The position numbers and the translations under genes were made by a program. Below are positions 10,576 to 30,359 of a stretch of 64,000 nucleotides of DNA, piece after piece. The first letter of the stretch is position 1; each line of letters opens with the position of its first letter. The stretch is from an uncultured Bacilli bacterium (GTDB lineage: Bacteria > Bacillota_I > Bacilli_A > RF39 > UBA660): contig CAJUQG010000001.1 in assembly GCA_910588025.1 (NCBI GenBank), positions 152,323 through 216,322 on the forward strand, read 5' to 3'. Below the pieces are notes generated by a model, which was not told the DNA's origin, did no database searches, and saw only the letters and a program-made list of their open reading frames with translations.

Positions 10576-11273
10576 TACTTCTTCCCTCCTCGTTTACTAT
10601 TTTTACCTACGGTATTATAATCAGGAATAGCTCCCAAAATAACCATTTCCATTTTTGATTCTACTTGTTCGACACTTTTAATCGTATTATCTAAGAAGAA
10701 AACTAAAAATAATAATCCAAACGCTACAAACACTCCAGCAAAACCACTAATAAAAATCGATTTTATATAATTCATATTTGTAGGATTATCACTAACCACC
10801 GCTTTATCCAAAATAGTTACGTTTTTAATATTGTAAAGAGCTTGAATTTCTTTACTAAAAATATCGGCCACTTCATTGGCAATATCTTTGGCAATCACCC
10901 TATTAGAATCTGTTACTGTAATATTTAAAACCATAGAATCTGTAACTGCTTTAATTTTAATACTTCCAGCTAAACTATTAGCAGAACGATTTAATTTTAA
11001 ATTATTCACAACTTGTTCTAGTACACTTCGACTAGTAATTATTTCTTGATAAGTTGGAATCATCTTAGTATTTAATGTAATATCGTTCGTGGTAATCTTA
11101 CTATCTCCACTAGTACCTGTAAGCGTTAATGAAACCTCAGAAGTATAAACGGGTCTTTGCACCACAATAAAATAAAATAAACAAATGATTAAAACAAAAA
11201 ACATAACCAAAACAAAAAAGATTGCATGTTTTTTAATATAGCTCAAAAATTCAAATACATTAATATCTTCCAT
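10575..11273 (-). CDS. polysaccharide co-polymerase / BY-kinase transmembrane modulator (CpsC/Wzz-type)
   Basis: Two-TM topology around a periplasmic-type domain, roughly 230 aa. Its stop overlaps the start of the cpsD-like gene. Confidence 0.8.
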   Translation of the reverse strand: MEDINVFEFLSYIKKHAIFFVLVMFFVLIICLFYFIVVQRPVYTSEVSLTLTGTSGDSKITTNDITLNTKMIPTYQEIITSRSVLEQVVNNLKLNRSANSLAGSIKIKAVTDSMVLNITVTDSNRVIAKDIANEVADIFSKEIQALYNIKNVTILDKAVVSDNPTNMNYIKSIFISGFAGVFVAFGLLFLVFFLDNTIKSVEQVESKMEMVILGAIPDYNTVGKNSKRGGKK

Positions 11274-11363: not shown

Positions 11364-12539
11364 TTAATCCCTATAAAACACATCTCGAGTATAAACTTTT
11401 TGTTCTACCTGTTTTAGCAGTTCTTCCATTCGATTAGCTAAAATGACATCCGCTAAAGATGCAAATTGCGAAAAATCTTGAATAACAGGATAACCCTGAA
11501 ATTCATTTGTTTGCAAAGTAGGTTCATAAATAATAATAGAAATCCCACTTTTTTGTAACTCTTTGATAATATCTTGAATTGCACTAGCTCTAAAATTATC
11601 CGAACCACTTTTCATCGTCAAACGATAAATTCCGACCGTTTGCGGATTTTTTTTAAGTACCATTTTAGCAATATGTTTTTTTCTTGTATCATTCGATTGA
11701 ACGATAGCACGAATTAAATTTTCTGGAATATCTCCATAATTCGCTAACAACTGTTTGGTATCCTTTGGTAAACAATACCCACCATATCCAAAAGAAGGAT
11801 TATTATAATGTCCCCCAATTCGCGTATCCAAAGATACACCATCAATAATATCTTTTGTATTTAATCCCTTTAATTCGGCATAAGTATCTAGTTCGTTAAA
11901 ATAAGCAACTCGTAATGCTAAGTAAGTATTCGCAAATAACTTTACCGCCTCAGCCTCAGTAGAATCCATAAATTTAACCACTACATCCTTTTTTAAAGAT
12001 GCCTCAACTAATAAATCGGCAAATTCCTTTGCTCGTGAAGATTTTTCACCCACAATAATGCGCGATGGATACAAATTATCATACAAAGCATGCCCTTCTC
12101 TTAAAAATTCTGGTGAAAACATAATATGATCGATAGAATATTTCTCTTTCATATTTTTGATAAACCCAACGGGCACAGTTGATTTTACCACTATGGTCGT
12201 ATCAATTCCCATCGAAATTACTTTTTTAATAATATCCTCAACACTAGAAGTATCAAAATAATTCTGTTCATCATCATAATTCGTTGGCGTACTAATAATA
12301 ACAAACTTCGCCCCTAGAAAAGCTTTTTGATAATCAAGCGTTGCCGTAAGATTTAAGTCCTTCGTTTTGAAATAGGTCTCAATTTCTTTATCTTCAATAG
12401 GAGACTTTCTTTGATTAATCATTTCAACTTTTTCTTCTATCACATCAAGTGCTACTACCTCATGTTTTTGACTTAATAAAGTTGCTAAAGATAACCCAAC
12501 ATATCCTGTCCCTGCTACAGCAATTTTCATTTTATTCAT
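11364..12539 (-). CDS. ugd: UDP-glucose 6-dehydrogenase
   Basis: N-terminal Rossmann motif AVAGTGYVGLS. Catalytic block GYGGYCLPKD. 391 aa. Confidence 0.9.
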   Translation of the reverse strand: MNKMKIAVAGTGYVGLSLATLLSQKHEVVALDVIEEKVEMINQRKSPIEDKEIETYFKTKDLNLTATLDYQKAFLGAKFVIISTPTNYDDEQNYFDTSSVEDIIKKVISMGIDTTIVVKSTVPVGFIKNMKEKYSIDHIMFSPEFLREGHALYDNLYPSRIIVGEKSSRAKEFADLLVEASLKKDVVVKFMDSTEAEAVKLFANTYLALRVAYFNELDTYAELKGLNTKDIIDGVSLDTRIGGHYNNPSFGYGGYCLPKDTKQLLANYGDIPENLIRAIVQSNDTRKKHIAKMVLKKNPQTVGIYRLTMKSGSDNFRASAIQDIIKELQKSGISIIIYEPTLQTNEFQGYPVIQDFSQFASLADVILANRMEELLKQVEQKVYTRDVFYRD

Positions 12540-13998
12540 CCTCTCTAATCTCTTTTTTCTTTCTCGTCATTTTCTTTCCAACACCGTTAGTTAACTCAAA
12601 CAAAAACTGATCTTTTAAAACAACTAAAGCTAGAAAATAAACACTACCAGAAACCCCAACTTGGATGACTATTGACCCAAAATGATCAGTTATCAAACTA
12701 CCTACCCAAATACTACAAACAAATAATAAGATAGATGCAATCAAATATTTATAAGTTAATTGAAATACTTCCTTGAAACGAATTTCTTTTCTTACTAAAA
12801 CAAATTGAGTAAAAGTAACAGAAAACTCCGCAATTACAGTTGCAATAGAAGCTCCAATGGAAGCAAAGTTTTTAATAAAAAGAAAATTAAGAACTAAATT
12901 AACAATGGCCCCAATACAAACCGATAAAGTATATTTATTCTGCTGTTTAGTAGGAAGTAAAAATTGAGTACCCATAATATTACTTAAACTAATGAACACA
13001 ATAATCGGACTAATAATACAAATGAGCGGAGCCACTTTATCATATCCCTCCCCATAAAAAAGAGGAACAAATTGATATGCAACACTCATGATGCCAAACA
13101 TCAAAGGAAATGCAATCATCATGATAAACTGAAATGAATGATTCAAATATTTTTTAATTTGTGTATGCTTTCCTTCTGCATAAGTTGCAGCAATCCTTGG
13201 TAACATCACCGTTCCAAAAGAAGTTGCAATCGTAAGTAACAATTTAATCATTTTTTGCGCTTGCTCATAATAACCGACTTCTGCTTTATCGTGAATAATA
13301 GCTCCAATCATTGTTTTATCTAACACTGTATAAATTTGCGTAGCAATTTGGGGAATAAAAAGAATCATCATCGGTTTCATATGTTTCACAAAATTTAATT
13401 CCTTAAACTTTACTCTTTTAATAACTCTAGGTAAATAAATCCACAACGACAAATTTCCCAAAAGATTTGCTAAAACATAAATTAATAAATAGTGATTTAA
13501 ATCATGTTCACTTCTCACAAAAAGAAAGATACAAATCACACTAATGATTTTAACTAACATATTTCGCATTACAGTCTTTTTAAATTCTTCTAACCCTTGA
13601 AAATACCAACTAATATCGATTGCACTAGCTAAAATTTCTAAAGTTAAAATCTTATAATAAATTTGATATTCCAAAGAAGAGCAAAACGTAAAATAAAACA
13701 CCAACATAGAAATCATCAAAGTAAAAAAACGTAACCAAAAAATTTCAAGAAAAGCTTTACTACGTTTTTCTATATTTTCTTGACAATAAGCAATCTCTCT
13801 TTGACCATACAAAGCAACTCCTAAAGAGCCAAACAAAATAAAATAAGTCGTAATAGACAATGTATAACTATATATTCCGATATTTTCTGCTCCAAGTACT
13901 CTTGACAAATATGGAGTAGTAATAAAAGGAATAAGAATTGCTAATATTTGATAAGATAAATGATAAATATAATTTTTCACAATACTTTTCTTTGCCAT
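12532..13998 (-). CDS. Wzx-type oligosaccharide flippase (MOP superfamily)
   Basis: About 14 TM helices and the typical polysaccharide-biosynthesis-protein N-terminus. ATG at 13998 follows an AAAGAGG SD; the track start is an upstream GTG. Confidence 0.8.
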   Translation of the reverse strand: MAKKSIVKNYIYHLSYQILAILIPFITTPYLSRVLGAENIGIYSYTLSITTYFILFGSLGVALYGQREIAYCQENIEKRSKAFLEIFWLRFFTLMISMLVFYFTFCSSLEYQIYYKILTLEILASAIDISWYFQGLEEFKKTVMRNMLVKIISVICIFLFVRSEHDLNHYLLIYVLANLLGNLSLWIYLPRVIKRVKFKELNFVKHMKPMMILFIPQIATQIYTVLDKTMIGAIIHDKAEVGYYEQAQKMIKLLLTIATSFGTVMLPRIAATYAEGKHTQIKKYLNHSFQFIMMIAFPLMFGIMSVAYQFVPLFYGEGYDKVAPLICIISPIIVFISLSNIMGTQFLLPTKQQNKYTLSVCIGAIVNLVLNFLFIKNFASIGASIATVIAEFSVTFTQFVLVRKEIRFKEVFQLTYKYLIASILLFVCSIWVGSLITDHFGSIVIQVGVSGSVYFLALVVLKDQFLFELTNGVGKKMTRKKKEIREDE

Positions 13999-14013
13999 AG
14001 AAACCTCTTTCAC

Positions 14014-15009
14014 TCACACTTTGATCATTTGATTTAATTTAGGAATTTTCGATATTACATAAGACACCAAAAAAGATAGAATAAGTACAATAATGACATG
14101 GATAACTCGCAAATAATTGTTAAGAAAAGGTAAGATTTTACACACAACTCTTAGAATACTATAATGAACGATATAAACACCCATTGTTAAATCAGATAAA
14201 TGTTGGAACAATTTATAATTGCTGACCAATTTACTTATGGAAAGAAAAATCAATATAGATGTAAAAATAATAATTGGGGAATCATAAAATGCTTCACAAT
14301 ACATAGTACCATAATTTTGATACGCAAAAAAGCATTGATACAAAACGGAACACACAATCATAAACAAAGTCAAAGAAAAAAGCTTTTTCTTGTCCAAATT
14401 GCTCACTTTATCATAATTTTTTCTAAGATATCCGCCTAAAAGGAAATACAAAAACCAAGTCCATAAACGAAACGTTTGAATGATATGATTCTTTAAAACA
14501 AATTGATAATTGTGATATAAAATAAGAAATAGAATATCTAAAATAACACACAATACCATCATGAAATACACCCAAAAAGAAAAAGACTGCTGTTGATATA
14601 GTTTTTGAAATAAAGGCAAAAGCAAATCGATTATAAGGATAGATCCTAAAAACCAAAAATGCGGAAAACCACCCTTTTGCAGAAAAGAGGCGAATATTTC
14701 ATAAAAAGGATTAGTAACTGTATCACCAATCACCCATTTCACCAAATATAAAAGACCTCCCCAAAACAGAACGATAATCATAATACGAAAAACTTTTTGA
14801 AAAACGTATCGATATTGATTTACTTTTCCTAATTGCAAATACCCATTTGTCATAAAAAACAAAGGTATAGCAAACACACCAAGATAATAAATCCATAATC
14901 CATTCGTATAAGTATGTTCGGATAACCCAATAGTAATAGAATGTAGAACAACGACCAAAAGACAAGCAATAATTTTTATAAAATCAATCCAAACGATTCT
15001 TTTTTTCAT
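14014..15009 (-). CDS. acyltransferase-3 family membrane O-acyltransferase
   Basis: Begins RIVWIDFIKIIACLLVVVLHS. About 10 TM helices, 331 aa, inside the polysaccharide locus. Confidence 0.75.
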   Translation of the reverse strand: MKKRIVWIDFIKIIACLLVVVLHSITIGLSEHTYTNGLWIYYLGVFAIPLFFMTNGYLQLGKVNQYRYVFQKVFRIMIIVLFWGGLLYLVKWVIGDTVTNPFYEIFASFLQKGGFPHFWFLGSILIIDLLLPLFQKLYQQQSFSFWVYFMMVLCVILDILFLILYHNYQFVLKNHIIQTFRLWTWFLYFLLGGYLRKNYDKVSNLDKKKLFSLTLFMIVCSVLYQCFFAYQNYGTMYCEAFYDSPIIIFTSILIFLSISKLVSNYKLFQHLSDLTMGVYIVHYSILRVVCKILPFLNNYLRVIHVIIVLILSFLVSYVISKIPKLNQMIKV

Positions 15010-16114
15010 TTACTTCCTCTTGATACTTAGAAAATGCTGATTCGATAACATCATCCATATCATAATATTTATATTCTGCTAGTCTTCCTCCAAAAATCAC
15101 ATTAGATTCCTTGGAAGCTAACTCTCGATATTGAAGCGCTAATTGATTATTCTTTTCATCATTAATCGTATAATATTTTTCCATACCTTCCTGATAATCC
15201 GTAGGATACTCAAAAGTTACCACTGTATTAGGACTTTCCGTATCAAATTCAAAATGCTTATGTTCAATAACTCTTGTATAATCTACTTCATGACCTGTAT
15301 AATTTACAACTGCATTACCTTGATAGTTACGTTCTGCCAAGATTTTTGTTTCAAATTTTAAACTTCTCCACTCCAAAACTCCTAAAGAATAATGAAAATA
15401 TTCATCAATGGGGCCAGTATAAACAATCTTCTCAGCAATTTCCTTGTAATAATCGACATTTTTAAAAAAATTAGTATTTAATTGAACATCTATCCCCGAA
15501 AGCATTTGAGCTACCATATTAGTATATCCTCCAACGGGAATACCTTGATACTTATCATTAAAATAATTATTATCATAGACAAATCGCACAGGTAAACGCT
15601 TAATAATAAAAGCAGGTAAATCTTTACAATCACGATTCCATTGCTTTTCTGTATAACCTTTAATTAACTTTTCATAAATAGTTCTTCCGATTAAACTAAT
15701 AGCTTGCTCCTCTAAATTACTAGGAACTTTTCCGTCCATTTCTTTTCGTTCTTCACTAATATGTCGCCAAGCATCTTCAGGAGAATAGACATCATCCCAA
15801 ATTTTAGCAAAAGTATTCATATTAAATGGCAAATTATAAATTTCGTTTCCAATACGCGCAACTGGACTATTGGTATAACGATTAAATTCGGCAAATTGAT
15901 TGACAAAATTCCAAACATTAGAATTATCTGTATGAAAGATATGAGCACCGTATTGATGAACTTGAATACCCTTAATATTTTCCGTATAAATATTACCAGC
16001 AATGTGTTCACGTTTATCAATCACCAAGACTTTTTTTCCATCCTTTTTGGCTAAATGAGCAAAAGTAGCGCCAAATAATCCTGCTCCTACTACTAAATAA
16101 TCATATTGTTTCAT
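14984..16114 (-). CDS. glf: UDP-galactopyranose mutase
   Basis: FAD-binding motif YDYLVVGAGLFG and the typical Glf length. ATG at 16114 is 8 nt after an AGGAGA SD. Confidence 0.9.
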   Translation of the reverse strand: MKQYDYLVVGAGLFGATFAHLAKKDGKKVLVIDKREHIAGNIYTENIKGIQVHQYGAHIFHTDNSNVWNFVNQFAEFNRYTNSPVARIGNEIYNLPFNMNTFAKIWDDVYSPEDAWRHISEERKEMDGKVPSNLEEQAISLIGRTIYEKLIKGYTEKQWNRDCKDLPAFIIKRLPVRFVYDNNYFNDKYQGIPVGGYTNMVAQMLSGIDVQLNTNFFKNVDYYKEIAEKIVYTGPIDEYFHYSLGVLEWRSLKFETKILAERNYQGNAVVNYTGHEVDYTRVIEHKHFEFDTESPNTVVTFEYPTDYQEGMEKYYTINDEKNNQLALQYRELASKESNVIFGGRLAEYKYYDMDDVIESAFSKYQEEVNEKKNRLD

Positions 16115-17354
16115 GTGATTCATCTCCTAAAAAGAAATTTTTTAATTCTTCATTTTTATTACTATAAAGAAGAAAATAATAATCAAACGCTAGAAGTACC
16201 ATCATAATCGAAGTATACTGATAAGCATTCATAAAAATCAAACTAAACTGAACAAGAAATAATTCCAACAAATATAAATTTTTTCCATGCAATAAATATT
16301 TCAAAAAACCTATCACAAAAGGAAACAAATAAAATAAAGCTAAGTAGATTCCGCCTTGTACTAACACGATTACAAGGGAACTAGACAATCCAGTATTATA
16401 ACTTCGAAAATCACTCATAAAGCTTACTGCTAATTCATTATTCATAAAGCCATTACCCATGATTTTGTGTTCCTTCCATGCCAAGTATCCAGCTCGGAAA
16501 TCATCGCTTCGAATATTATAAGAACGAGTTTCTGCTTTATCATAAAAGAGAAATAACCCAATAATTAATACAAAAAAGATAACCATAATCTTTAAAAATC
16601 TTATATTTTTATTCTTATTATAAAAAAGAAACCGATATAAAATTAAAAACAAGGAAATTAACATACCTGTTAAAGATAGAGAAGATATAATAGATAATCC
16701 AAAAACAATAGTATATTTATTAAACATATTTTTCTTATAAAAAAGGGCAAATCCCATTGCTAAAATTAAATGCAATGCAAACATAGGGCCCTCTACAAAA
16801 ATACTAGAATTTCTTAGTAAAACTTGGTCAAAAATAACTGTAGTTTGCGAATCAAAATGCAAATAATGATACCCATATATCGATTGTAACCCTCCCCAAT
16901 CGATATTCAAAGAAACATTTGGTTCTACAAGCTTTAACAAAGATCCTCCAATGTAAAAAACTAAAGAAACAAAAGCGATAACAAACATTACATTAATATA
17001 AGCCTTCAATAAATTTTGTATTTGTTCCTTATCAAAAACCGAAAACATTAAAAACATCAAAGGAAATATGACAAAAAAAGAACTCAAAAAACTCAAACGA
17101 CTATCTTGGACACCTAACAGAAAAAAAATACTAATATATATAAAATAAGCAAGCAAAAATAAAATGGTATTTTTTTTCAATTTTTTATTAAAATTTATAA
17201 TAAAAATTGCCAATAAATCAAGAATAATAAACACAGATAAGAATTTTCCCAAATTACTATCATAAATGTGAGCAAATACACTTCTACTATCAAGAATTAC
17301 GAAAAATACTAATAAATATTGTAAATAGATATTAATTCTATTTTTATGTCTCAT
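16101..17354 (-). CDS. Wzy-type oligosaccharide repeat-unit polymerase (O-antigen ligase-like)
   Basis: 417 aa, highly hydrophobic, 10 or more TM helices with a large loop. It lies between glf and the glycosyltransferases. Confidence 0.65.
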   Translation of the reverse strand: MRHKNRINIYLQYLLVFFVILDSRSVFAHIYDSNLGKFLSVFIILDLLAIFIINFNKKLKKNTILFLLAYFIYISIFFLLGVQDSRLSFLSSFFVIFPLMFLMFSVFDKEQIQNLLKAYINVMFVIAFVSLVFYIGGSLLKLVEPNVSLNIDWGGLQSIYGYHYLHFDSQTTVIFDQVLLRNSSIFVEGPMFALHLILAMGFALFYKKNMFNKYTIVFGLSIISSLSLTGMLISLFLILYRFLFYNKNKNIRFLKIMVIFFVLIIGLFLFYDKAETRSYNIRSDDFRAGYLAWKEHKIMGNGFMNNELAVSFMSDFRSYNTGLSSSLVIVLVQGGIYLALFYLFPFVIGFLKYLLHGKNLYLLELFLVQFSLIFMNAYQYTSIMMVLLAFDYYFLLYSNKNEELKNFFLGDESHETI

Positions 17355-17358
17355 AATG

Positions 17359-18108
17359 TTATATACTCCTTATAAGGATTTTAATCTTTTTCAGAAAATT
17401 AATCAATTTATTTTCTGTAAATAACATAGAATTAACATATTTTACCCGTTTTTGATGTTTTTCTACCCATACATTAATCAAAAACTCAGACATAAATCCA
17501 TAAATTCTTTGTTCCTGTTTTGTATAACCAGTCAAATCAACCATACTTTCATATTTTTCTAATAATTCAAACAACCAACTACAATATGATTGAAAATCTT
17601 CTCGCTTCATGACGGCCATATTACAAAAACTAGCTGAATTACTATGCATTACTTTCTCAAAAGCATCATAGTATTCTGAATATTCTCTTTGAATCAACTT
17701 TTCTAATGCAATTAAATCTTGTTCTCTCCCACTAATACTATTTGCAAAATATCCCCAAACATCTGGTTTTTCTTTCACCTTTTTAGGTAATACAACATCA
17801 TATTGTTTCATCCATTTTTCCATTTGATCTACTCGATATATTTTCGAAAAAAGACCATGAACAAAAAAGCGTCGATAATGACAGATGCCAACATAATCTG
17901 GCAACTCATAATTTTTCCACAACCAATAAATGGCTGTCAACTCACAGTAAAAAGGATTCTTAGAAGCAATATTATCTCCAACCGAATCTGCTAAAATCCG
18001 TCCATGATTTTTCTTTCCATACGAAGATACACCAATTACCTTATAATCATTCGGTACCTTTAAAAATAAATCCTTATGTGTGATTACAAACATTTCTATT
18101 TTTTTCAT
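17359..18108 (-). CDS. DUF4422-family putative glycosyltransferase
   Basis: N-terminus MFVITHKDL...YKVIGV and the block CELTAIYWLWKN...GICHYRRFF, characteristic of DUF4422 proteins in capsule loci. Confidence 0.65.
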   Translation of the reverse strand: MKKIEMFVITHKDLFLKVPNDYKVIGVSSYGKKNHGRILADSVGDNIASKNPFYCELTAIYWLWKNYELPDYVGICHYRRFFVHGLFSKIYRVDQMEKWMKQYDVVLPKKVKEKPDVWGYFANSISGREQDLIALEKLIQREYSEYYDAFEKVMHSNSASFCNMAVMKREDFQSYCSWLFELLEKYESMVDLTGYTKQEQRIYGFMSEFLINVWVEKHQKRVKYVNSMLFTENKLINFLKKIKILIRSI

Positions 18109-18114
18109 AATTCC

Positions 18115-19065
18115 TCACTTCACCAAACTAGTATTAATATCGTAATATTTACTTTTAAAAATTTTTTGCTTTAATTTAATCATCATAGCCAAAATTTGAA
18201 ACAACTTCTTTTTTTGATAATTACTCCACTTTGTTGCATAAATCGTAAACTCTTGTCGTTGAAACAATTCAAACAACAATTCTAATTGCATAATATGTAA
18301 ATCATGATAAGCTGGGCTAGCAATCGTCTTTTTTAAATCATAATTCGACCAAAAGCCTCTATCATATTTTGGTAAAAAACGACAAAGCGTATCAACAGAC
18401 TTCATTAAGATTTCTTGATATTTTTTATCTTCCGAAATTAAAGTAAAATCATATAAACCAAAAAGAGAAAAAATCCAGCCATTTAATACCGATAAATTAT
18501 GAGAAGAAACATATTCTTGAAAAATAACATCTTCTTGCTGATAAAGAGTCGTTCCCCCATTTTCAATATCTCGAAGCATAAAATCGAGCGCTAATTTAGC
18601 TTTCTCTAAAAATTGCCTTTCCTGCGTTTCAACATAAGCCCGTAACAAAACAGATACCCCTTCACTCTGACACATAGAAGATTGCGTAAAATGTGCTTGA
18701 TCATGTAAAGTTGCCATACAATTCCACATACCTTGTTCATCAAGATGGCTAATAGCCCACTTCGCGATATTCAAAAATTGACTCAATCGTTTCTTATCAT
18801 GAGTTTCTAAATATAAATCATACAACCCCAAACCATATTGAAAAATAGTAATAGGAAAATAAGCTTCAATTCCTGCAATAGTAGTATTAATAGGAATTCC
18901 CTGAGAATCTAATATCGTAGAATCACATACTTTATTGGTTAAATCGTTATAATATCCTTTGACACTCTGTTTCGAATAATATTTTCCAATTCCTTGCTTA
19001 ACATGAAAGGCACTTTTCCCACAAAGCATTCGAAACCAACGTTTTAATAACTTAAATATCTTCAT
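18115..19065 (-). CDS. D-glucuronyl C5-epimerase-like protein (GLCE C-terminal domain family)
   Basis: Conserved blocks SSMCQSEGVSVLLRAYVET, QEYVSSHNLSVLNGWIFSLFGLYDF, LPKYDRGFWSNYDL, AYHDLHIMQLELL and KWSNYQK. These match my recollection of the C-terminal blocks of animal GLCE. Confidence 0.7.
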   Translation of the reverse strand: MKIFKLLKRWFRMLCGKSAFHVKQGIGKYYSKQSVKGYYNDLTNKVCDSTILDSQGIPINTTIAGIEAYFPITIFQYGLGLYDLYLETHDKKRLSQFLNIAKWAISHLDEQGMWNCMATLHDQAHFTQSSMCQSEGVSVLLRAYVETQERQFLEKAKLALDFMLRDIENGGTTLYQQEDVIFQEYVSSHNLSVLNGWIFSLFGLYDFTLISEDKKYQEILMKSVDTLCRFLPKYDRGFWSNYDLKKTIASPAYHDLHIMQLELLFELFQRQEFTIYATKWSNYQKKKLFQILAMMIKLKQKIFKSKYYDINTSLVK

Positions 19066-19066
19066 G

Positions 19067-20083
19067 CTACTCCTCCGTAAGTTCCTTTTTAAAATCTTTT
19101 AATAACTCATCGATATCATATTTTTTAGATAGCTTCAAAGATTCTAACTTATATTCTTGCAAATGACCTTCTCTTATGAGCTCTATGGCTTTTTTATACA
19201 TATCTTCATAATTCTGATATTCAAAAATTTTACCATTTTGATTATCTAAAATATATTCGTGCGCATATTTCCAGTTAGAAGCTAAAACTGCCAGTCCAGC
19301 TATATAAGCATCAATTAAAGCTCCTGGTAAACATTCTCCTTTATATTCCGTTGGAAAAATAAAAATATCATATTGCGATAATATTTCATATTCATCTTTC
19401 CCATTTGGATTAATAACACCATGATATCGGATATTTTGATGAAAAGCTTTTTTGATTTCATTCAAATAATCTTCTTTCACTTGACCATAAATATCTAAAC
19501 TACATTCAATGTTCTCATGATTTAATCGTTCTACCAAAGAAATTGCTTCTTCTACGCCTTTTTCTTTAATCACGCGACCAAAATACACAAATCGCGTCTT
19601 TTTACTCTCTTGATACTTACTATGATAAGGTTCTATTTTTCGAAAATTATTTAAAACTTCAACATTATGAATATTTAGTTCATTCAAATCTTGCTTAAGC
19701 GTTTCGGCTTCCACATAAATACATTTTAAAGCCTGATAATCCTTCACATTCCATTGTTTTTGCTGAATATTTCTAGATAAAGAGCCACCTATCACAAAAT
19801 AATAAATCTTTTTCTTCGTCCGAATTTTTCGAAAAAAATTTAAAACAATATGTGCTCCTCTATCCGCTGAAGAAACAATAATATCATCACATTGAAAATA
19901 ATTGACCAGAATGAGAAATATTAATTTAAAAATATGCTTTTGCCAATGATCAGTATCTACAGATATCAATTGAATATTAGAAAGACCACAAAAATATTCT
20001 TTCAACAAACGACACTTAATCGTCTCACCATCAATTCGATTTCGAGAATCAGCAGTAGTAGCTATATACAAAACTTTTTTCAC
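19067..20083 (-). CDS. GT-B fold glycosyltransferase (family 4/1-like)
   Basis: C-terminal EX7E-type region FPTEYKGECLPGALIDAYIAGLAVLASN. 338 aa. Confidence 0.75.
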   Translation of the reverse strand: MKKVLYIATTADSRNRIDGETIKCRLLKEYFCGLSNIQLISVDTDHWQKHIFKLIFLILVNYFQCDDIIVSSADRGAHIVLNFFRKIRTKKKIYYFVIGGSLSRNIQQKQWNVKDYQALKCIYVEAETLKQDLNELNIHNVEVLNNFRKIEPYHSKYQESKKTRFVYFGRVIKEKGVEEAISLVERLNHENIECSLDIYGQVKEDYLNEIKKAFHQNIRYHGVINPNGKDEYEILSQYDIFIFPTEYKGECLPGALIDAYIAGLAVLASNWKYAHEYILDNQNGKIFEYQNYEDMYKKAIELIREGHLQEYKLESLKLSKKYDIDELLKDFKKELTEE

Positions 20084-20090
20084 GCTTCAC

Positions 20091-20924
20091 CTACTTCTTA
20101 TGATATATTCTTTTTTTCACAGCATGAAAAGCATAACCAACAAAACAATAACATGCTTTCCATAAAGGCAATTTTTCAATTTTACGATACCAATACCAAT
20201 TCATTTTAACCGCTTTCAATTTATTACTAGAAAGAGAATTCTTAACAACCCGGTAATAAGACAACGTTTCTGGAACTTCATAGCAATCATAGCCATTTTT
20301 TAATAATTGACACCAAGTGGCAGCATCTTGTCTTCTTCGAATATTTGGCATAACTAATAATTCTTTACCCGTAATTTGTGTATCCACCATCACACAAACC
20401 GTTTGAATAATGGTATTTCTCAAAAAGAGATTATAATTAACGCGAGCCGGAATTTTAACGATCTTTCCAAGACTATTACCCGCTTCATCTAATTTTTCAT
20501 AATCAGTACAAGTAAAAGCATAATGATGTTCTAACATGTACTTTACTTGCTTTTCTAGCTTTTCTTTTTTCCATAAATCATCTGCATCTAAATAAGCCAC
20601 AAAACGTCCCTTAGATTCTTCTAACGCTTTATTTCTTGCTACTGCCGCACCACTATTTTTTTCTAATTTAAAATACTTAACTCTAGAATCATTTTTCACA
20701 AATGATTGAATGACTTCTGCTGATGAATCCGTAGAACAATCATCTACCAAAAGTAATTCCCAATTTTGATAGGTTTGTGCTTGCACACATTGAATCGTTT
20801 CTGCAATTAATTTCTCACAATTATAGATAGGCGTAATAATAGAAACCAAGTTTACTCTACAATCTACTTCTCCACCTTTTAAATTTGCACCTTCATTTAC
20901 TACATCCTTCATTTTACTTTTCAT
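20091..20924 (-). CDS. family 2 glycosyltransferase
   Basis: VSIITPIYNCEKL...LLLVDDCSTDSS...YLDADD. ATG at 20924 is 7 nt after a GAGGTG SD; the track start is an upstream TTG. Confidence 0.85.
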   Translation of the reverse strand: MKSKMKDVVNEGANLKGGEVDCRVNLVSIITPIYNCEKLIAETIQCVQAQTYQNWELLLVDDCSTDSSAEVIQSFVKNDSRVKYFKLEKNSGAAVARNKALEESKGRFVAYLDADDLWKKEKLEKQVKYMLEHHYAFTCTDYEKLDEAGNSLGKIVKIPARVNYNLFLRNTIIQTVCVMVDTQITGKELLVMPNIRRRQDAATWCQLLKNGYDCYEVPETLSYYRVVKNSLSSNKLKAVKMNWYWYRKIEKLPLWKACYCFVGYAFHAVKKRIYHKK

Positions 20925-20996
20925 TACTTCACACCTCAATTCGACTCATAGTCTACTATACCTATAATATAGAAAAAAGAGCAATACGTCAAATTA

Positions 20997-21704
20997 TTAT
21001 ACTGCTCCATCTCTTTTTATAACTTTAACAATTGTAGAAAAAATAATCTTAATATCTAACCAAATAGAACAATGACCAACGTAATATAGTTCAAGTTGCT
21101 TTCTTTTTTTATAAGTAGTACAGCTTCTTCCATTCACTGCCCAATATCCAGTAAGCCCAGGTCTTAAACTCAAAAACTTCTTCGCTTCTGCACTATTATA
21201 ATTTTCAATTTCATCAGGAACAATTGGTCTTGGTCCAATCAAAGACATATCCCCTTTAAAAATATTGATAAATTGTGGAAATTCATCAAGGGAAGTCACG
21301 CGTAATAGTTTCCCTATTTTTGTAATTCTTGGATCATTTTCTAATTTTCGTGTTTGATAATACTCTTCACGAATATCTTCATTTTCCTCTAACCAACGCT
21401 TTAAAACATCTTCAGCATTAGGAACCATCGTTCTAAATTTATAAATATAAATAAATTGACCATATTTTCCCAAACGTTTTTGTTTAAAAAAGATAGAATG
21501 AAAATCACCACTACAAATCGTAATAATTTTTACGAATAAAGCAAGCGGAATCAAAAATAAAATACCGATGAATCCTACAAAAACATCAAAAGTCCTTTTA
21601 AAGACAAAATATAAATATCGAAAAGATACACTTTTACTACGTGTTTCTTCATATACTAACTCTTTATTATTCACAATCAAACCCCTCCAAACATACTTAT
21701 TCAT
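20997..21704 (-). CDS. undecaprenyl-phosphate sugar phosphotransferase (bacterial sugar transferase, WbaP/CpsE C-terminal type)
   Basis: One TM helix, then KRLGKYGQFIYIYKFRTM...LDEFPQFINIFKGDMSLIGPRP. It is the first gene of the locus. Confidence 0.88.
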   Translation of the reverse strand: MNKYVWRGLIVNNKELVYEETRSKSVSFRYLYFVFKRTFDVFVGFIGILFLIPLALFVKIITICSGDFHSIFFKQKRLGKYGQFIYIYKFRTMVPNAEDVLKRWLEENEDIREEYYQTRKLENDPRITKIGKLLRVTSLDEFPQFINIFKGDMSLIGPRPIVPDEIENYNSAEAKKFLSLRPGLTGYWAVNGRSCTTYKKRKQLELYYVGHCSIWLDIKIIFSTIVKVIKRDGAV

Positions 21705-21830
21705 AATTTTTTGGTTCAGTTTAGATTATTATAACAAACTACTCTGACCTTCTGGAAATTATAACACCAACTTAACAGAAAAACTGTCAAATTTTAGTTA
21801 AATCTTCATGAATAAATAAATTTAATGGCT

Positions 21831-21859
21831 ATTCTAACACATTTGTCGTATTTTGTCGA
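21831..21859 (-). promoter_or_regulatory. candidate sigmaA-type promoter of the polysaccharide operon
   Basis: The minus strand reads TCGACA, a 17-nt spacer, then TAGAAT with an upstream TGT (extended -10). It is about 125 nt upstream of the sugar-transferase ATG. Confidence 0.4.
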
Positions 21860-21888
21860 GTACTAATTGCTAGAAAGTATTACCATTT

Positions 21889-23919
21889 TTAAGAAATATC
21901 ACAATGCGTATAACCTACACCACCATGTATCATTTCTTGTAACACAACCTCCAAGCCTTTCTTAGGAATTTCCTTTAGTAAAAAGACATGCCCCCCATTA
22001 CATAATTCATGTAATTTGCCTTCCAATACAATTCGTTCTTCCAAACTTACTTTCCGATTCACTAAAAAAGTACTTCCATATTGACCATGGTTTTCGAAAC
22101 CTTTTAATTTACCATATATGACCTCATCAAGTTCTAAAAAATACGTTCCAACATCATCCAAATCCATAGCACATAAAGCAAAATTTAAATTATTTTCTTC
22201 TGAATAACGATCTAACACCTTTCTTATATATGTAACAATTTTAATCGCTTCTTCTTGAGCAAGTGTTTCATTCTCTCTTTTTCCAAGTAAAAGAAAGACT
22301 GTTTCCCAAAGTCCAACAAAATTAACTTGCAATACACCATGTTTAAAAATTTTCCGCAATCGGTCATTTTCTTTCACATTTTCTCCAAATTTCCAAACTC
22401 CCTTACCGATTAAATACGGAAAGTTATAATTATGTTTACTACATTGATACTCAAAACGTTCCAAAATTTCATTTTTCGCAAGTTCTAAAGTTTCTAAAAG
22501 TTCTTCATAAAAATGCTCTACATCTTCATGCTGATGCCTTAGAGCAAGACGTGGTAAATTAATGCTTGTAAAAGACACACTGCCCTTTTCTCCAACATAA
22601 ACACCATCTTGAGTTGTATTATCAAAAAAAGCTCGCTCGCCCCCTACCCCATAACATACATCTTCTTTGCTCTGATTGTATGAAACATCTAAAAATTCAA
22701 AATCTACAACCCCTTTAAAATATGCTTCTTCCGCTAACTTACGTACGTCACTCATCGCTTTATTATGAGAAAAATGCAAACACTCCTTTAACTTAAAAAT
22801 ACCAATTACTGCATCAGGATTTTGAAGTACTAATTCTTGGATGAAAACCTTATCAATCATAATGGCTGCCATACTTTGTTCTGTTCCAAAAGAGAAAGAA
22901 ACTTTTTGATGATTAAAATTTTGTTCATAAGAAAACTGTAATTCTCCTAAAAACCAATGAAGTGCTTTTTGTAAATTATGTTGTAGGGTCTCCAAACTTT
23001 CTCGGTAAGAATCCAAAAATAGCGTACGAATCGGATGAGAACTTTGATAAAAATACCGATAATCTTCCTCATTAATTTCTAAAGAAGAAAGTTCACTTAC
23101 CTTTTGACGAAATAAATCCATTGGCAAAATTTCTTGCAAACCAAAGGAAGACAATTTTAACTCCAAAGTCTCTTGCCATATCAAACCAAAATGACGAATT
23201 AAAATAGGTTCTAATTCCTTTTCAAAATAAGGTACCATGACATTCCCGTGTTGCTCTAACATAATACTACGAATCACTTTTGATAAAGACAATAACGCAT
23301 CAAAAACGTGATTCTGGGCTGACTCTTCTAAAAACTTAGAATAAAGAAGTTGAACACTACTTGGATTTCCCATTGCATAATATCCTAATTGATGAAAATA
23401 TAAAATTCCACTATCAATAGTTCGAACGGTTTTATGATCTAACAAAAAACTTTGTGCAAACTCTTCACTAATCACTTTCCCAAAATGATAAAACATATCC
23501 TGCGGTGGCAAAGAAGAACCAACCAACTTGGGATCCTCTTTTTCATTCAGCCCTAACTTCTCCATTGATTTCAAAAACTTATGTTGTTCTTTTTTGGTAA
23601 ATGATTCACGTGATAAAGCCCTTTGTTCACGGTATTTTCGATAATGATTATAAATATCTAGATATTGATGATTTTCTAAAACCTCTAAAATAATATCTTG
23701 AATATCCTCTATTTTTATTGTTTTTCGATCTTGATAATCCTTCGCGATTTTTGCTAAAACCGAACTATAAACACGATTCATATCTTTATTTTCATAAGCA
23801 TGTGTAACACTATCAAAGGCTTTTTTGATTGCAATCGCTATTTTTTCACCTTGAAATTCACAACGTTGTCCACTTCTCTTTACAACGATTAAACTGTCAA
23901 GTACATCATTTTTTTGCAT
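21889..23919 (-). CDS. ATP-cone protein homologous to class III ribonucleotide reductase NrdD but lacking the Zn-ribbon and glycyl-radical C-terminus
   Basis: N-terminal ATP-cone (VVKRSGQRCEFQGEKIAIAIKKAF). Collinear blocks with the neighbouring NrdD (FTSINLPRL, CNGGHVFLL). It ends at GGVGYTHCDIS with no CxxC or RVxG[FY] motif. Confidence 0.7.
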   Translation of the reverse strand: MQKNDVLDSLIVVKRSGQRCEFQGEKIAIAIKKAFDSVTHAYENKDMNRVYSSVLAKIAKDYQDRKTIKIEDIQDIILEVLENHQYLDIYNHYRKYREQRALSRESFTKKEQHKFLKSMEKLGLNEKEDPKLVGSSLPPQDMFYHFGKVISEEFAQSFLLDHKTVRTIDSGILYFHQLGYYAMGNPSSVQLLYSKFLEESAQNHVFDALLSLSKVIRSIMLEQHGNVMVPYFEKELEPILIRHFGLIWQETLELKLSSFGLQEILPMDLFRQKVSELSSLEINEEDYRYFYQSSHPIRTLFLDSYRESLETLQHNLQKALHWFLGELQFSYEQNFNHQKVSFSFGTEQSMAAIMIDKVFIQELVLQNPDAVIGIFKLKECLHFSHNKAMSDVRKLAEEAYFKGVVDFEFLDVSYNQSKEDVCYGVGGERAFFDNTTQDGVYVGEKGSVSFTSINLPRLALRHQHEDVEHFYEELLETLELAKNEILERFEYQCSKHNYNFPYLIGKGVWKFGENVKENDRLRKIFKHGVLQVNFVGLWETVFLLLGKRENETLAQEEAIKIVTYIRKVLDRYSEENNLNFALCAMDLDDVGTYFLELDEVIYGKLKGFENHGQYGSTFLVNRKVSLEERIVLEGKLHELCNGGHVFLLKEIPKKGLEVVLQEMIHGGVGYTHCDIS

Positions 23920-24197: not shown

Positions 24198-24227
24198 TTG
24201 CATTTTTAAAAAACTTCATAGTATAAT
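24198..24227 (+). promoter_or_regulatory. candidate sigmaA-type promoter of nrdDG
   Basis: TTGCAT, an 18-nt spacer, then TATAAT. The -10 box overlaps the ATG listed in the ORF track (24226), which argues for the downstream start at 24265. Confidence 0.5.
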
Positions 24228-24264
24228 GACCCTACAGACAATATCAAGAAAGGATTGTGATTAT

Positions 24265-26358
24265 ATGATAAAGTCTATCATTAAAAGAAATGGCAAAAAA
24301 CAAGATTTTGATGCAAAGAAAATTGAAGTTGCCATTCAAAAAGCTTTAATAGCAACCAACAAAGAAATTTCCAAAGAAGAAAGTGAACATAAAAGTCAAA
24401 TTATAACAAACAACGTTCTTTTAATATTAGAAGATTTAAACCGAGATACAGTATGTATAGAAGATGTACAAGACGCTGTCGAAAATGCTTTAATGAATAG
24501 TGGTTTAAACAATGTAGCCAAGAATTATATTCGCTATCGTTATCAAAGAGAAATATTAAGAAACGATAATCTTTCTAGTAAAGCTGTCGAAAAAATGGTA
24601 CTTACCTATACCGGCGGCGATGATATGGCCGTAAAAGAAAATTCCAATATGGGCTTCTCTTTACAAGGTTTAAATAACTTTTTAGTATCAGAATTCAGTA
24701 AAAACTTCTGGCTAAATCATATCTTTACTCCCGAACAAAAGAAAGCTCACGAAAATGGTGACATTCACATTCATGATTTAGGGCTTTTATCTGTTTACTG
24801 TTGTGGATGGGACTTAGAACAATTGCTAATCAAAGGATTTACTGGAGTAAAAAATAAAATTCAAAGTAAACCTCCAAAACATTTCCGAAGCGCTCTAGGT
24901 CAAGTTGTAAACTTTATCTATACTCTTCAAGGAGAAGCAGCTGGTGCTCAAGCTCTATCTAGTTTCGATACTTACTTAGCTCCTTTCATTCGTTATGATA
25001 ATTTAACATATAAAGAGGTAAAACAAGCAATGCAAGAATTTATCTTTAACATGGCTGTACCAACCAGAGTTGGTTTTCAAACTCCATTCTTTAACATTAC
25101 TCTAGATTTAGAAGTAAGTTCTTTATTCAAAGATAAACACATCATAATTGGTGGCGAATACAAAGAAGAAACCTATGGTGAATTTCAAGAAGAAATGGAT
25201 TTATTAAACAAAGCTTTCTGTGAAGTAATGACAGAAGGAGATGCGAGTGGCCGTGTATTCACATTCCCTATCCCTACTTACAATATCGGAAAAGACTTTA
25301 ATTGGGATCGTCCAATTGTAGATGATGTTATGAAAATGACAAGCAAATATGGAATTCCTTATTTTGCTAACTTTGTAAATAGTGATATGAATCCTGAAGA
25401 TGCTAGAAGTATGTGCTGTCGTCTTAGAATCGATAATCGCGTGTTAAGAAAACGTGGTGGTGGCTTATTTGGTGCTAACCCTATGACTGGAAGTATCGGT
25501 GTAACAACCATCAACCTTCCACGCTTAGGTTATTTATACAAAGATAAAACTGAACTAAAAAAACAATTACGAATTTTAATGGATTTGTGTCGCGATATCT
25601 TAAGTACTAAACGTAAATTTTTAGAAAAAAATACCGAAGGCGGACTTTACCCATATAGCAAATTTTATCTTGCTGACATTAAAGAACGTTTCGGAGAATA
25701 TTGGAAAAACCATTTCAATACGATTGGTATTGTTGGAATGAACGAATGTATTAGAAACTTTACTAACGATTCTGAAAATATAACTACACGTTATGGGCAA
25801 GAATTTGCCAAAGACATTCTAGATTATATGAACGAAGTCTTAACAGAATATCAAGAAAATGGCGACCTTTACAACTTAGAAGCAACTCCAGCCGAAGGAA
25901 CAGCACCACGTCTTGCTAAAATAGACAAAAACACTTACAAAGATATTATTACTGCTGGAGAAAAAGAAGCATGCTATACCAATAGTACTCAATTACCAGT
26001 TAATGCGACCGACGATTTATTTGAAGCCATCGAATTACAAGATGAACTACAATGTAAATATACAGGTGGAACTGTTCTTCATGCTTTCTTAGGAGAAAGA
26101 ATTCATGATCCGAAAGTTACCAAAACTTTACTACAAAATATTTTTGCCAATTATAAATTACCATATTTATCATTTACCCCTACTTTCAGTATTTGTAAAG
26201 AACATGGTTATTTAGATGGCGAACAATTTACTTGTCCGCATTGTGGTGGAGATTGTGAAGTATGGACAAGAGTGGTAGGATTCTATCGTCCAGTTCAAAA
26301 CTTTAATAATTCAAAACGAGAAGAATTCCATCAAAGAAAAGAATATATAGTAGAATGA
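24265..26358 (+). CDS. nrdD: anaerobic ribonucleoside-triphosphate reductase (class III)
   Basis: ATP-cone at the N-terminus (IIKRNGKKQDFDAKKIEVAIQKAL). Thiyl-Cys block SMCCRLR. C-terminal Zn-ribbon CPHCGGDCEVW and glycyl-radical motif TRVVGFYRP. AAAGGA SD before the ATG at 24265. Confidence 0.92.
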   Translation: MIKSIIKRNGKKQDFDAKKIEVAIQKALIATNKEISKEESEHKSQIITNNVLLILEDLNRDTVCIEDVQDAVENALMNSGLNNVAKNYIRYRYQREILRNDNLSSKAVEKMVLTYTGGDDMAVKENSNMGFSLQGLNNFLVSEFSKNFWLNHIFTPEQKKAHENGDIHIHDLGLLSVYCCGWDLEQLLIKGFTGVKNKIQSKPPKHFRSALGQVVNFIYTLQGEAAGAQALSSFDTYLAPFIRYDNLTYKEVKQAMQEFIFNMAVPTRVGFQTPFFNITLDLEVSSLFKDKHIIIGGEYKEETYGEFQEEMDLLNKAFCEVMTEGDASGRVFTFPIPTYNIGKDFNWDRPIVDDVMKMTSKYGIPYFANFVNSDMNPEDARSMCCRLRIDNRVLRKRGGGLFGANPMTGSIGVTTINLPRLGYLYKDKTELKKQLRILMDLCRDILSTKRKFLEKNTEGGLYPYSKFYLADIKERFGEYWKNHFNTIGIVGMNECIRNFTNDSENITTRYGQEFAKDILDYMNEVLTEYQENGDLYNLEATPAEGTAPRLAKIDKNTYKDIITAGEKEACYTNSTQLPVNATDDLFEAIELQDELQCKYTGGTVLHAFLGERIHDPKVTKTLLQNIFANYKLPYLSFTPTFSICKEHGYLDGEQFTCPHCGGDCEVWTRVVGFYRPVQNFNNSKREEFHQRKEYIVE

Positions 26359-27017
26359 TTTATGGAATTCAAAAACTATCTTTAGTGGATTACCCATCTT
26401 TACCGAGCTTTGTGATTTTTCTAGGAGGGTGTAACTTTCGTTGCCCCTTCTGCCACAATAGTTCGATTGTCAATAAAACTGAAACGACTTACGAAATCAA
26501 TGACGTCTTACTAGAAATTCAAAAAAGAAGTGCCTTTTTAAATGCTGTAGTCATAACTGGTGGAGAACCCACTTTATATGGTGAAAAATTAATTGAATTA
26601 TTAAAACAAATTAAAAAACTCCATTTACAAATTAAATTAGATACCAACGGAACCAATCCCAAACTTTTAAAAAAGATTTTGGACTTAAATTTAGTTGATT
26701 ACATTGCTATGGATATCAAAAACACTTGGGAAAAATATGAAGAAACAGTAGGATGCCCAGTAGATTTAGATAAAATAAAACAAAGCATAGAAATCATTGA
26801 AACTAGCAAAAAAGATTACGAATTTCGCATGACCATTAATAAAACAATGCACACGAAAGAAGATATTTTAAGTGTCCAAAATTATGTGAAAGAAAAAAAA
26901 CGTTTTTTCCTCCAACCTTACAAACAACAACCTACTCAAATAATCAAACAAGATTTTGGTGAATGGACAAAAGAAGAATTACAAGAACTAGAAGAAGCTT
27001 TTTCTATCAAAGCTTAA
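26355..27017 (+). CDS. nrdG: anaerobic ribonucleotide reductase activating protein (radical SAM)
   Basis: CNFRCPFCHN cluster motif and GGEPTL. Its start overlaps the nrdD stop (ATGA). Confidence 0.9.
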   Translation: MIYGIQKLSLVDYPSLPSFVIFLGGCNFRCPFCHNSSIVNKTETTYEINDVLLEIQKRSAFLNAVVITGGEPTLYGEKLIELLKQIKKLHLQIKLDTNGTNPKLLKKILDLNLVDYIAMDIKNTWEKYEETVGCPVDLDKIKQSIEIIETSKKDYEFRMTINKTMHTKEDILSVQNYVKEKKRFFLQPYKQQPTQIIKQDFGEWTKEELQELEEAFSIKA

Positions 27018-30345: not shown

Positions 30346-30359
30346 AACTTCCTCTTTAC

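Follow-up and report, generated by a model that had tools for sequence, protein, structure and literature searches.

We describe a gene for a predicted hexuronyl (D-glucuronyl) C5-epimerase in a polysaccharide operon of an uncultured Bacilli bacterium. It is located at 18115..19065 on the minus strand, a strand that the original prediction for this DNA had left unspecified, of a stretch of 64,000 nucleotides from contig CAJUQG010000001.1 of assembly GCA_910588025.1 (hereafter the window). The open reading frame (ORF) starts with ATG and encodes a single-domain PF06662 protein of 316 amino acids (aa) (ORF list, Pfam), which by its sequence is a true homologue of the animal heparan-sulfate glucuronyl C5-epimerase GLCE, with the catalytic Glu and Tyr set intact. 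The protein is a member of the GLCE/PF06662 family reduced to the catalytic domain, and we consider it moderately probable that it acts on the cytoplasmic side of the membrane, where it would convert D-glucuronic acid (GlcA) to L-iduronic acid (IdoA) on a repeat unit linked to undecaprenyl diphosphate (Und-PP). That the substrate is GlcA, that the product is IdoA and that the reaction takes place on the lipid-linked oligosaccharide is what we infer from the evidence below.

Family membership, fold and N-terminus of the epimerase

In a Pfam search the protein matched PF06662 (D-glucuronyl C5-epimerase C-terminus, C5-epim_C) at E = 7.3e-40, with 136.9 bits against a cutoff of 23.3, over profile positions 4-187 of 188. 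This significant, near full-length match is the sole Pfam match at E <= 1; neither a beta-helix domain, as in the mannuronan epimerases AlgG/AlgE, nor a dermatan-sulfate epimerase domain was found at that threshold. NCBIfam has no model for this epimerase family and gave only chance-level matches (lanthionine synthetase, E = 0.006). Among all PDB sequences, phmmer reached significance for human GLCE (6hzz; E = 7e-22) and zebrafish GLCE (4pw2; 2e-19) alone, and the E-value for PDB GLCE improved to 1.7e-33 with a profile of 52 family members. The original prediction, made from the sequence alone, had recognized a GLCE homologue by five sequence blocks, and all five are present (aa 129, 183, 231, 252, and 279).

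The AlphaFold2 model, built on the family alignment (predicted local distance difference test (pLDDT) 93.5, predicted TM-score (pTM) 0.92), is closest to human and zebrafish GLCE. In a Foldseek search of the PDB, GLCE chains take the first eight places (E ~1e-11, root-mean-square deviation 2.3-3.5 A, ~210 columns, 27% identity), with a coverage of ~210 of ~515 target residues and a TM-score normalized to the target of 0.35. The next group of matches, generic (alpha/alpha)6 barrels such as GH76 mannanases, YihS/AGE isomerases and rhamnosidases, starts at 1.6e-4, seven orders of magnitude weaker. Structural matches to AGE, YihS, and cellobiose 2-epimerase lie at E ~2e-4 to 2e-3, against 1e-11 for GLCE, and an AGE-like fold is not the best match.

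In human GLCE, Tyr578 abstracts the C5 proton and Glu499 reprotonates from the opposite face (PMC12834895, review, 2026). The catalytic residues Glu499, Tyr500, Tyr560, and Tyr578 of the human enzyme correspond to E184, Y185, Y242, and Y253, all kept in the protein encoded in the window. In the HMMER alignments QEY (E184, Y185) falls on human E-E-Y, NYDL (Y242) on I-Y-D-L, and AYHDLH (Y253, H254, H257) on D-Y-H-T-T-H, and the block AYHDLHIMQLELL is aligned with human D-Y578-H-T-T-H-I-N-Q-L-Q-L-L. The numbering was checked in two ways: the 6i01/6i02 chains differ from 6hzz by a Y->F exchange, and that F aligns with Y253; the chain index plus an offset of 90 gives the protein numbering, with the anchors landing on 499/500, 560, and 578. 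Across 81 aligned sequences, that of the query plus those of 80 relatives found in named genomes (39-69% identity), Y242, Y253, H257, R142, Q133, and N195 are kept in 81/81 and E184 in 78. A weak N-terminal match (aa 36-89 against human chain 88-139, independent E-value 0.34) places the nearly invariant Y82 opposite Tyr222.

The epimerase gene directly follows a gene for a glycosyltransferase of family 4 (GT4; Glycos_transf_1, 19067..20083, minus strand; Pfam), the conserved partner of the epimerase. The stop codon of the GT4 gene ends 1 nucleotide (nt) ahead of the epimerase ATG, and a GGAGG ribosome-binding site is located 6 nt 5' of this ATG, within the 3' end of the GT4 gene, so that the two genes are translationally coupled. 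Database gene calls for the epimerase often begin at M13, giving 304 aa. As W10 and M13 are kept in at least 90% of 52 aligned homologues, the longer start, giving 316 aa, is favored, and the calls at M13 look like an annotation error that removes a conserved basic amphipathic N-terminal helix. This helix is predicted for residues 2-14 (KIFKLLKRWFRML), which have a net charge of +5 and the highest hydrophobic moment of the protein (0.94, mean 0.28), and we infer that it lies at the membrane interface and mediates membrane association. No transmembrane segment was found in the protein (maximum 19-residue Kyte-Doolittle mean 1.29), nor was a signal peptide or lipobox found in its sequence, of which the N-terminus is basic and amphipathic; the extracytoplasmic or lumenal location through a signal anchor that is typical of GLCE does not apply here.

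With respect to annotation, close relatives carry the NCBI name 'D-glucuronyl C5-epimerase family protein'. The label 'thioredoxin' that the same protein cluster (MCI8467519.1/P0122, P0064) bears in NCBI MAG records was rejected as a likely annotation error, as a Pfam search found no thioredoxin domain.

Relatives, glycosyltransferase linkage and dehydrogenase type

A 90%-identity database contained 612 matches at E <= 1e-5, mostly of 304-320 aa, and 3,274 representative clusters were found at 50% identity and E <= 1e-3, including 178 at E <= 1e-30; the median length of the relatives is 316 aa. A profile-guided scan of the GTDB species representatives yielded 147 loci, of which 80 were kept for locus counts, with hosts in the Clostridia, Bacilli, Negativicutes, Bacteroidota, Bifidobacterium, Elusimicrobiota, and others. 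Relatives were found in cultured organisms such as Sporomusa ovata DSM 2662, Eubacterium aggregans SR12, Bifidobacterium saguini DSM 23967, Hallella faecis, and Sporanaerobacter acetigenes, and strains of Lactococcus lactis have a gene with 68% identity. The term 'animal-type' in the original prediction is justified in that the protein is a true GLCE homologue, but the rarity it implied is not, given 3,274 clusters at 50% identity in many bacterial phyla and a list of prokaryotic members dating from 2011 (PMC3068255).

An exact-peptide scan of the GTDB species representatives found no copy, so that the representative genome of this species, if present in GTDB, lacks the gene. The nearest relatives among the representatives are at most 69% identical and belong to other genera, with no near-identical copy. 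A plasmid search returned only three distant matches (Deinococcus, Priestia), and none in Lactococcus exopolysaccharide plasmids. The lack of near-identical copies among the representatives, with the nearest relatives in other genera, is consistent with type-specific, horizontally exchanged capsule loci.

The association with GT4 extends to the related loci. In 55/78 of them, the ORF that ends just upstream of the epimerase belongs to the GT4 family (binomial P = 2.5e-36 against a background of 10.4%, the proportion of GT4-like ORFs among those of at least 180 aa in the same loci); in 40/80 a GT4-family ORF begins just downstream, and GT4 is found on at least one side in 70 of the 80 loci. A Bac_transf initiating transferase is present in 61/80 and a Wzx-like flippase in 45/80 (34/52 for loci with full flanks); lipid-linked assembly is the usual context of the family. 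In nine loci with at least 57% identity (L006-L014) a module consisting of the initiating transferase, a TuaG-like GT2 glycosyltransferase (62-80% identity), GT4, and the epimerase is kept, and in Clostridium sp. CAG:389 (L006) the whole operon is syntenic with that in the window. In a separate case (L003 1427..2451, GCA_948933355.1) the GT4 partner is broken into two ORFs (258 aa and 44 aa), with the epimerase intact; either a frameshift has made the locus phase-variable or inactive, or the assembly is faulty.

Among the best 150 of the 3,274 representatives, five long proteins were resolved by Pfam as fusions. Three of these (P0277, P0298, and P0263) consist of GT4 followed by the C5-epimerase and one (P0206) of the C5-epimerase followed by GT4, and the occurrence of both orders reinforces the gene-pair statistics. 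The fifth, P0273 (L089 2380..4623), is a Wzx/Polysacc_synt flippase followed by the C5-epimerase, joined at the Wzx C-terminus. The three fusion sequences that were read (P0273, P0277, and P0206) all keep the Tyr560 and Tyr578 equivalents. The termini of Wzx are cytoplasmic in mapped examples, and Wzx handles Und-PP-linked repeat units; the fused epimerase would therefore sit at the membrane in the cytoplasm, beside the protein that handles the Und-PP-linked unit. A hydropathy count for the topology of this fusion was not used, as it proved too crude, with helices missed or split.

These observations bear on the location of the reaction. The original prediction had GlcA converted to IdoA after incorporation into the polymer; the identity of the enzyme and the conversion of GlcA to IdoA stand as the best reading, but action on the finished polymer does not, given the lack of a signal peptide or transmembrane segment. 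Wzy polymerizes repeat units on the outer face of the membrane, and an epimerase without export signal is very unlikely to act there in the manner of the animal enzyme. Modification of an extracellular polymer, as by animal GLCE or by the alginate epimerases AlgG/AlgE, has some precedent in that polymers served as assay substrates for animal GLCE and Bermanella RED65 (PMC13308652) and that signal peptides were predicted for many prokaryotic homologues (Raedts et al., 2011, PMC3068255). Against this, the ~316-aa subfamily is uniform in length, with an N-terminus that is conserved as basic and not hydrophobic, and the partners found in fusions (GT4 and the Wzx C-terminus, the latter according to established topology mapping) are cytoplasmic. 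We regard this possibility as highly improbable.

With respect to the substrate, the original prediction had pointed to a UDP-glucose 6-dehydrogenase, Ugd, as the supplier of UDP-GlcA. The gene at 11364..12539 (minus strand; Pfam, NCBIfam) is a genuine ugd, with 553 bits to the UDP-glucose 6-dehydrogenase model NF011631 compared to at most 111 bits for UDP-N-acetylmannosamine (UDP-ManNAc) and UDP-N-acetylglucosamine (UDP-GlcNAc) dehydrogenases. No PF01370-type sugar epimerase (4-epimerase) was found in the ~45 window ORFs scanned, and hence no route from UDP-GlcA to UDP-galacturonic acid (UDP-GalA) is seen. A UDP-glucose dehydrogenase, of the E. coli Ugd or the TuaD type, is present in 7/7 loci of the close clade (at least 57% identity) that have enough downstream sequence. 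Together with the GLCE homology, the catalytic residues and the Wzx/Wzy operon with Ugd, this makes GlcA to L-IdoA the best reading of the reaction.

In the wider family a nucleotide-sugar 6-dehydrogenase is found within 10 kb of the epimerase in 36/80 loci, and in 25 of these it is a UDP-glucose dehydrogenase. WecC-type (UDP-ManNAc) dehydrogenases are neighbors in L025, L031, L032, L033, and L055, and a TviB-type (UDP-GlcNAc) dehydrogenase in L029, all with epimerases ~40-45% identical to the query; in the two Sporomusa loci, L032 and L033, the WecC-type gene is directly downstream of the epimerase. The dehydrogenase in L053 looks TviB-like by tblastn. Thus, the wider family probably consists of hexuronyl C5-epimerases with several substrates, the assignment of GlcA being particular to the subfamily of the query, and the distant members beside UDP-ManNAc or UDP-GlcNAc dehydrogenases suggest subfamilies that C5-epimerize N-acetylated hexuronic acids, e.g. 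N-acetyl-D-mannosaminuronic acid (ManNAcA) to N-acetyl-L-gulosaminuronic acid (L-GulNAcA).

A different reaction with the same fold and chemistry could in principle also apply to the query itself, i.e., C5-epimerization of GalA, ManNAcA, or N-acetylglucosaminuronic acid (GlcNAcA), or the action of a lyase or trimming enzyme that abstracts the C5 proton. The dehydrogenases beside the distant members, the 44/80 loci without a dehydrogenase within reach and the occurrence of lyases and hydrolases among (alpha/alpha)6 barrels are in line with such a role. However, the dehydrogenase is always of the UDP-glucose type in the window and the close clade, and no UDP-GlcA 4-epimerase or UDP-GlcNAc 2-epimerase was found among the ~45 ORFs scanned. 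In addition, the protein retains the complete set of GLCE catalytic residues and resembles GLCE in structure far more closely than any hydrolase or lyase, and a cytoplasmic enzyme for degradation would hardly be expected amid the genes of a biosynthetic operon. We therefore consider another reaction improbable for this protein.

Level of action and comparison with known systems

All PF06662 enzymes assayed to date, animal GLCE and Bermanella RED65, act on glycan-bound GlcA (PMC12624080; PMC13308652). This favors action on the lipid-linked oligosaccharide, as do the fusion of the epimerase to Wzx and the frequent flanking by GT4 on both sides, which suits an internal GlcA. A further argument is the archaeal precedent of Agl32 from the N-glycosylation pathway of Halobacterium salinarum, which converts an internal GlcA to IdoA on a dolichol phosphate-linked tetrasaccharide before flipping (PMC12624080). 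This soluble, alpha-helical, single-domain protein is the best functional analogue of the query, but the two differ in that Agl32 has no recognizable GLCE sequence homology, being AGE-superfamily-like with an apparently different active site (PMC13308652), whereas the query is firmly GLCE-like.

In the mechanism that we propose, Ugd would make UDP-GlcA, and the WbaP-like initiating transferase, together with the TuaG-like GT2, the GT4, and a GT111 galactofuranosyltransferase, would assemble the repeat unit on undecaprenyl phosphate. The epimerase, made together and probably working together with the GT4, would then take the C5 proton from the GlcA of the Und-PP-linked oligosaccharide. By analogy with GLCE, Y253 (Tyr578) may serve as the base and E184 (Glu499) may return a proton from the opposite face to give L-IdoA. 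Subsequently, the unit would be O-acetylated, flipped by Wzx, polymerized by Wzy, and attached by a LytR-CpsA-Psr (LCP) enzyme. To our knowledge, epimerization on an Und-PP-linked unit before flipping has never been shown biochemically in bacteria.

The main rival to action on the lipid-linked unit is a route at the nucleotide-sugar level, in which UDP-alpha-D-GlcA is converted to UDP-beta-L-IdoA in the cytosol and the adjacent or fused GT4 is a dedicated iduronosyltransferase that drains the unfavored epimer. The epimerase is predicted to be soluble and cytoplasmic, and its tight coupling, at times fusion, to GT4 would suit substrate channeling. The short form lacks the N-terminal domains of GLCE; if those bind long chains, their loss would favor a smaller substrate. 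A UDP-L-IdoA pathway through the O112ab epimerase 'Gae' has been proposed in a review of E. coli O-antigens, stated there to be without experimental basis (PMC7685785), and the authors of the Agl32 study also allow for action of that enzyme on UDP-GlcA (PMC12624080). Nevertheless, activity on a nucleotide sugar has not been demonstrated for any PF06662 member, those assayed using glycan-bound GlcA (PMC12624080; PMC13308652), it is difficult to see why an enzyme of nucleotide sugars should be fused to the Wzx flippase, and the presence of GT4 on both sides in many loci suits the internal GlcA that GLCE and Agl32 require. We consider the nucleotide-sugar route rather unlikely.

Several findings weigh against action on the lipid-linked GlcA as proposed here. 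The GT4 linkage and the GT4 fusions suit the UDP-IdoA route equally well. The Wzx-epimerase fusion P0273 comes from just one contig of 6.6 kb, and an assembly error or a frameshift could have produced it artificially. The equivalent of Tyr500, Y185, is present in 62/81 aligned sequences, with F, C, S, or H at this position in the other 19. In 11 of the 36 loci with a dehydrogenase, only the WecC (UDP-ManNAc) or TviB (UDP-GlcNAc) type is found; with a dehydrogenase in only 36 of the 80 loci, and solely of these types in 11, GlcA is not the universal substrate of the wider family. The organism is known only from metagenome-assembled genomes (MAGs), and a sequencing run labeled as metatranscriptomic (X11) was rejected as evidence for transcription, as its contigs of up to 99 kb and flat depth across divergent genes are DNA-like.

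Comparison with animal GLCE shows what is shared and what is not. The homologous (alpha/alpha) barrel catalytic domain, the equivalents of Glu499/Tyr500/Tyr560/Tyr578 and the YHxxHxxQLxLL block are common to both. In contrast, GLCE has 617 aa, compared to 316 in the query, and includes a membrane anchor and, in its N-terminal part, a beta-hairpin and a beta-sandwich domain from which the dimer is built, all absent from the query. The animal enzyme works in the Golgi lumen on a heparosan chain, whereas the query is predicted to be cytoplasmic and to serve a Wzx/Wzy heteropolymer with galactofuranose (Galf) and O-acetyl groups, and in its locus no sulfotransferase was found that could pull the equilibrium.

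E. coli O112ab and Shigella boydii 15 carry a gene for a 323-aa PF06662 protein and have an O-antigen with L-IdoA (PMC3068255), the only bacterial case in which IdoA product and gene coincide (PMC3068255; PMC7685785). As in the query, the 'Gae' protein, likened here by its published description, is a short single-domain PF06662 protein (~300-325 aa) in a Wzx/Wzy-type cluster, and in the window a supply of UDP-GlcA is encoded along with the epimerase, by ugd in the same operon. The 'Gae' protein differs in belonging to a Gram-negative O-antigen, and its function is likewise predicted. The only bacterial PF06662 enzyme with demonstrated activity, as of mid-2026, is RED65_08024 of Bermanella marisrubri (PMC13308652). 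This member of the same Pfam family shows that bacterial representatives can epimerize glycan-bound GlcA/IdoA, but it has 448 aa, stems from a marine gammaproteobacterium and was assayed only on animal-derived O-desulfated heparin.

A screen of prokaryotes for GLCE homologues had already listed short Firmicute members of 302-312 aa in type-specific polysaccharide loci (Raedts et al., 2011, PMC3068255), namely in Bacillus cereus R309803 (307 aa), Ruminococcus sp. 18P13 (302 aa), and Thermoanaerobacter tengcongensis (312 aa). These share size class, phylum, and polysaccharide-locus context with the query, and a role as type-specific C5-epimerases was already predicted for them; that paper does not describe the coupling to GT4, the fusions or the split in dehydrogenase type (PMC3068255). 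A full-text literature search turned up no study on the function of PF06662 proteins of the short, Wzx/Wzy-associated type. Short bacterial PF06662 proteins have thus been known since 2011, and the query adds another one with a predicted function; the quantified GT4 coupling, the fusions and the split in dehydrogenase type are what is added here, and they make the mechanistic question testable.

More broadly, it is possible, and we propose it tentatively, that the ~316-aa cytoplasmic PF06662 proteins form a distinct class that is obligately paired with GT4 and C5-epimerizes a uronic acid on the Und-PP-linked unit before flipping, with the subfamilies flanked by WecC or TviB doing the same on N-acetylated hexuronic acids.

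The operon, its host and the predicted polymer

The genes from 21704 to 9453 are all on the minus strand and tightly packed or overlapping. The first encodes a short WbaP/RfbP-like polyprenyl-phosphate hexose-1-phosphate transferase (Bac_transf, 20997..21704, minus strand as all that follow; Pfam/NCBIfam match), which is predicted to initiate the Und-PP-linked repeat unit. It is followed by a GT2 glycosyltransferase (20091..20939) with TuaG, of teichuronic acid synthesis, as its best NCBIfam match, at 338 bits and so below the 400-bit cutoff, and by the GT4 and epimerase genes. Downstream of these are a DUF4422 protein (17359..18108; Pfam), predicted to be a UDP-galactofuranose transferase since the DUF4422 domain has the GT111 UDP-galactofuranose transferase fold (PMC12269835), a repeat-unit polymerase of the Wzy type (16101..17354; Pfam), the UDP-galactopyranose mutase Glf (14984..16123; Pfam, NCBIfam), an Acyl_transf_3 membrane O-acyltransferase (14014..15009; Pfam), and the flippase Wzx (Polysacc_synt/MOP, 12532..14013; Pfam, NCBIfam). 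The polymerase is a multi-spanning membrane protein with a weak Wzy_C match, under the Pfam cutoff, and with the flippase it confirms the Wzx/Wzy type assigned to the locus in the original prediction. After ugd the operon continues with a CpsC-like Wzz chain-length protein (10575..11273), a CpsD-like tyrosine kinase/ATPase (9889..10575), and a VanZ-like gene (9453..9914), all identified by Pfam.

A hairpin scan placed the only good terminator-like hairpin of the region after vanZ (9414..9397, minus strand), a weak indication that the operon probably ends here. The LCP ligase gene just beyond it (7130..8602, minus strand; Pfam) encodes the probable attachment enzyme of the polymer. A promoter scan of the region gave no excess over chance (89 found, 91.6 expected).

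The genes for Galf, O-acetylation, and Ugd point to an O-acetylated repeat unit of about four sugars with Galf and a GlcA-derived uronic acid. From this gene content we predict a heteropolymer of such units, with a backbone that is not glycosaminoglycan-like. Mimicry of host glycosaminoglycans, which the original prediction had put forward, was rejected for want of a supporting gene: the locus encodes Glf, the DUF4422/GT111 protein and an O-acetyltransferase, its route is that of a Wzy-type heteropolymer, and no sulfotransferase is among the genes scanned.

The identical protein and the same locus occur on contigs of several NCBI MAGs and of one Joint Genome Institute metagenome. The protein-cluster members are labeled 'Bacilli bacterium' in the NCBI MAGs and the GC content of the window is 30.4%, in agreement with the Firmicute origin assumed originally; public runs with the sequence are nearly all mouse-gut metagenomes. 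In run X11 a strain variant was found in which 871 bp of the O-acyltransferase gene (14084..14956) are swapped for 36 nt and which diverges in the wzy region (~16592..17352), whereas 17352..23706 (GT111, epimerase, GT4, GT2, and initiating transferase) is ~99% identical to the window. This points to strain-level variation that is limited to the variable half of the locus.

The genes that flank the locus (MraW, penicillin-binding proteins (PBPs), MraY-like, Mur ligase, gyrase/topoisomerase IV subunits, and NrdD/NrdG) indicate a chromosomal location. Pieces of a dcw-like cell-division and cell-wall region (406..8602 and 28219..31581) bracket the polysaccharide and nrd block, with MraW and PBP2B on one side and a PBP and an MraY-like protein on the other, and the block could have been inserted into such a region. 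Further envelope genes lie between these pieces and encode a DUF6056 protein (5589..7061), a HEAT-repeat protein (4521..5576), and a GT2 (3474..4517).

Directly upstream of the polysaccharide operon is a second, divergent NrdD-like ORF (21889..23919, minus strand, 676 aa, PF13597 E = 2e-45), and back-to-back with it, at 24226..27017 on the plus strand, are a canonical nrdD (710 aa, E = 9e-195) and nrdG. The divergent ORF could code for a paralogue of the anaerobic ribonucleotide reductase or for a different glycyl-radical enzyme. ORFs at 8677..9222, 37243..39186, and 51822..53559 on the minus strand and at 58160..59122 on the plus strand (sizes 181, 647, 296, 284, and 320 aa) had no Pfam match at the thresholds used.

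The epimerase by itself is no indication of host-glycosaminoglycan mimicry. Only a few bacterial glycans are recorded as containing L-iduronic acid; if the prediction holds, this sugar may be much more widespread among gut commensals than structural chemistry suggests. In that case, an abundant uncultured lineage of mouse-gut Bacilli and many gut Clostridia, Bacteroidota, and Negativicutes carry L-iduronic acid on their surface. The pairing with GT4 and the fusions provide a handle on whether the reaction takes place at the level of the oligosaccharide or of the UDP-sugar, a question shared with the O112ab Gae protein and the archaeal Agl32. A small soluble enzyme of this type could also serve as a GlcA/IdoA biocatalyst, as the human enzyme is difficult to produce and the sole bacterial one tested is inefficient. 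If the subfamilies beside WecC- or TviB-type dehydrogenases do epimerize N-acetylated hexuronic acids, this would explain several of the rare L-uronic acids in bacterial glycans.

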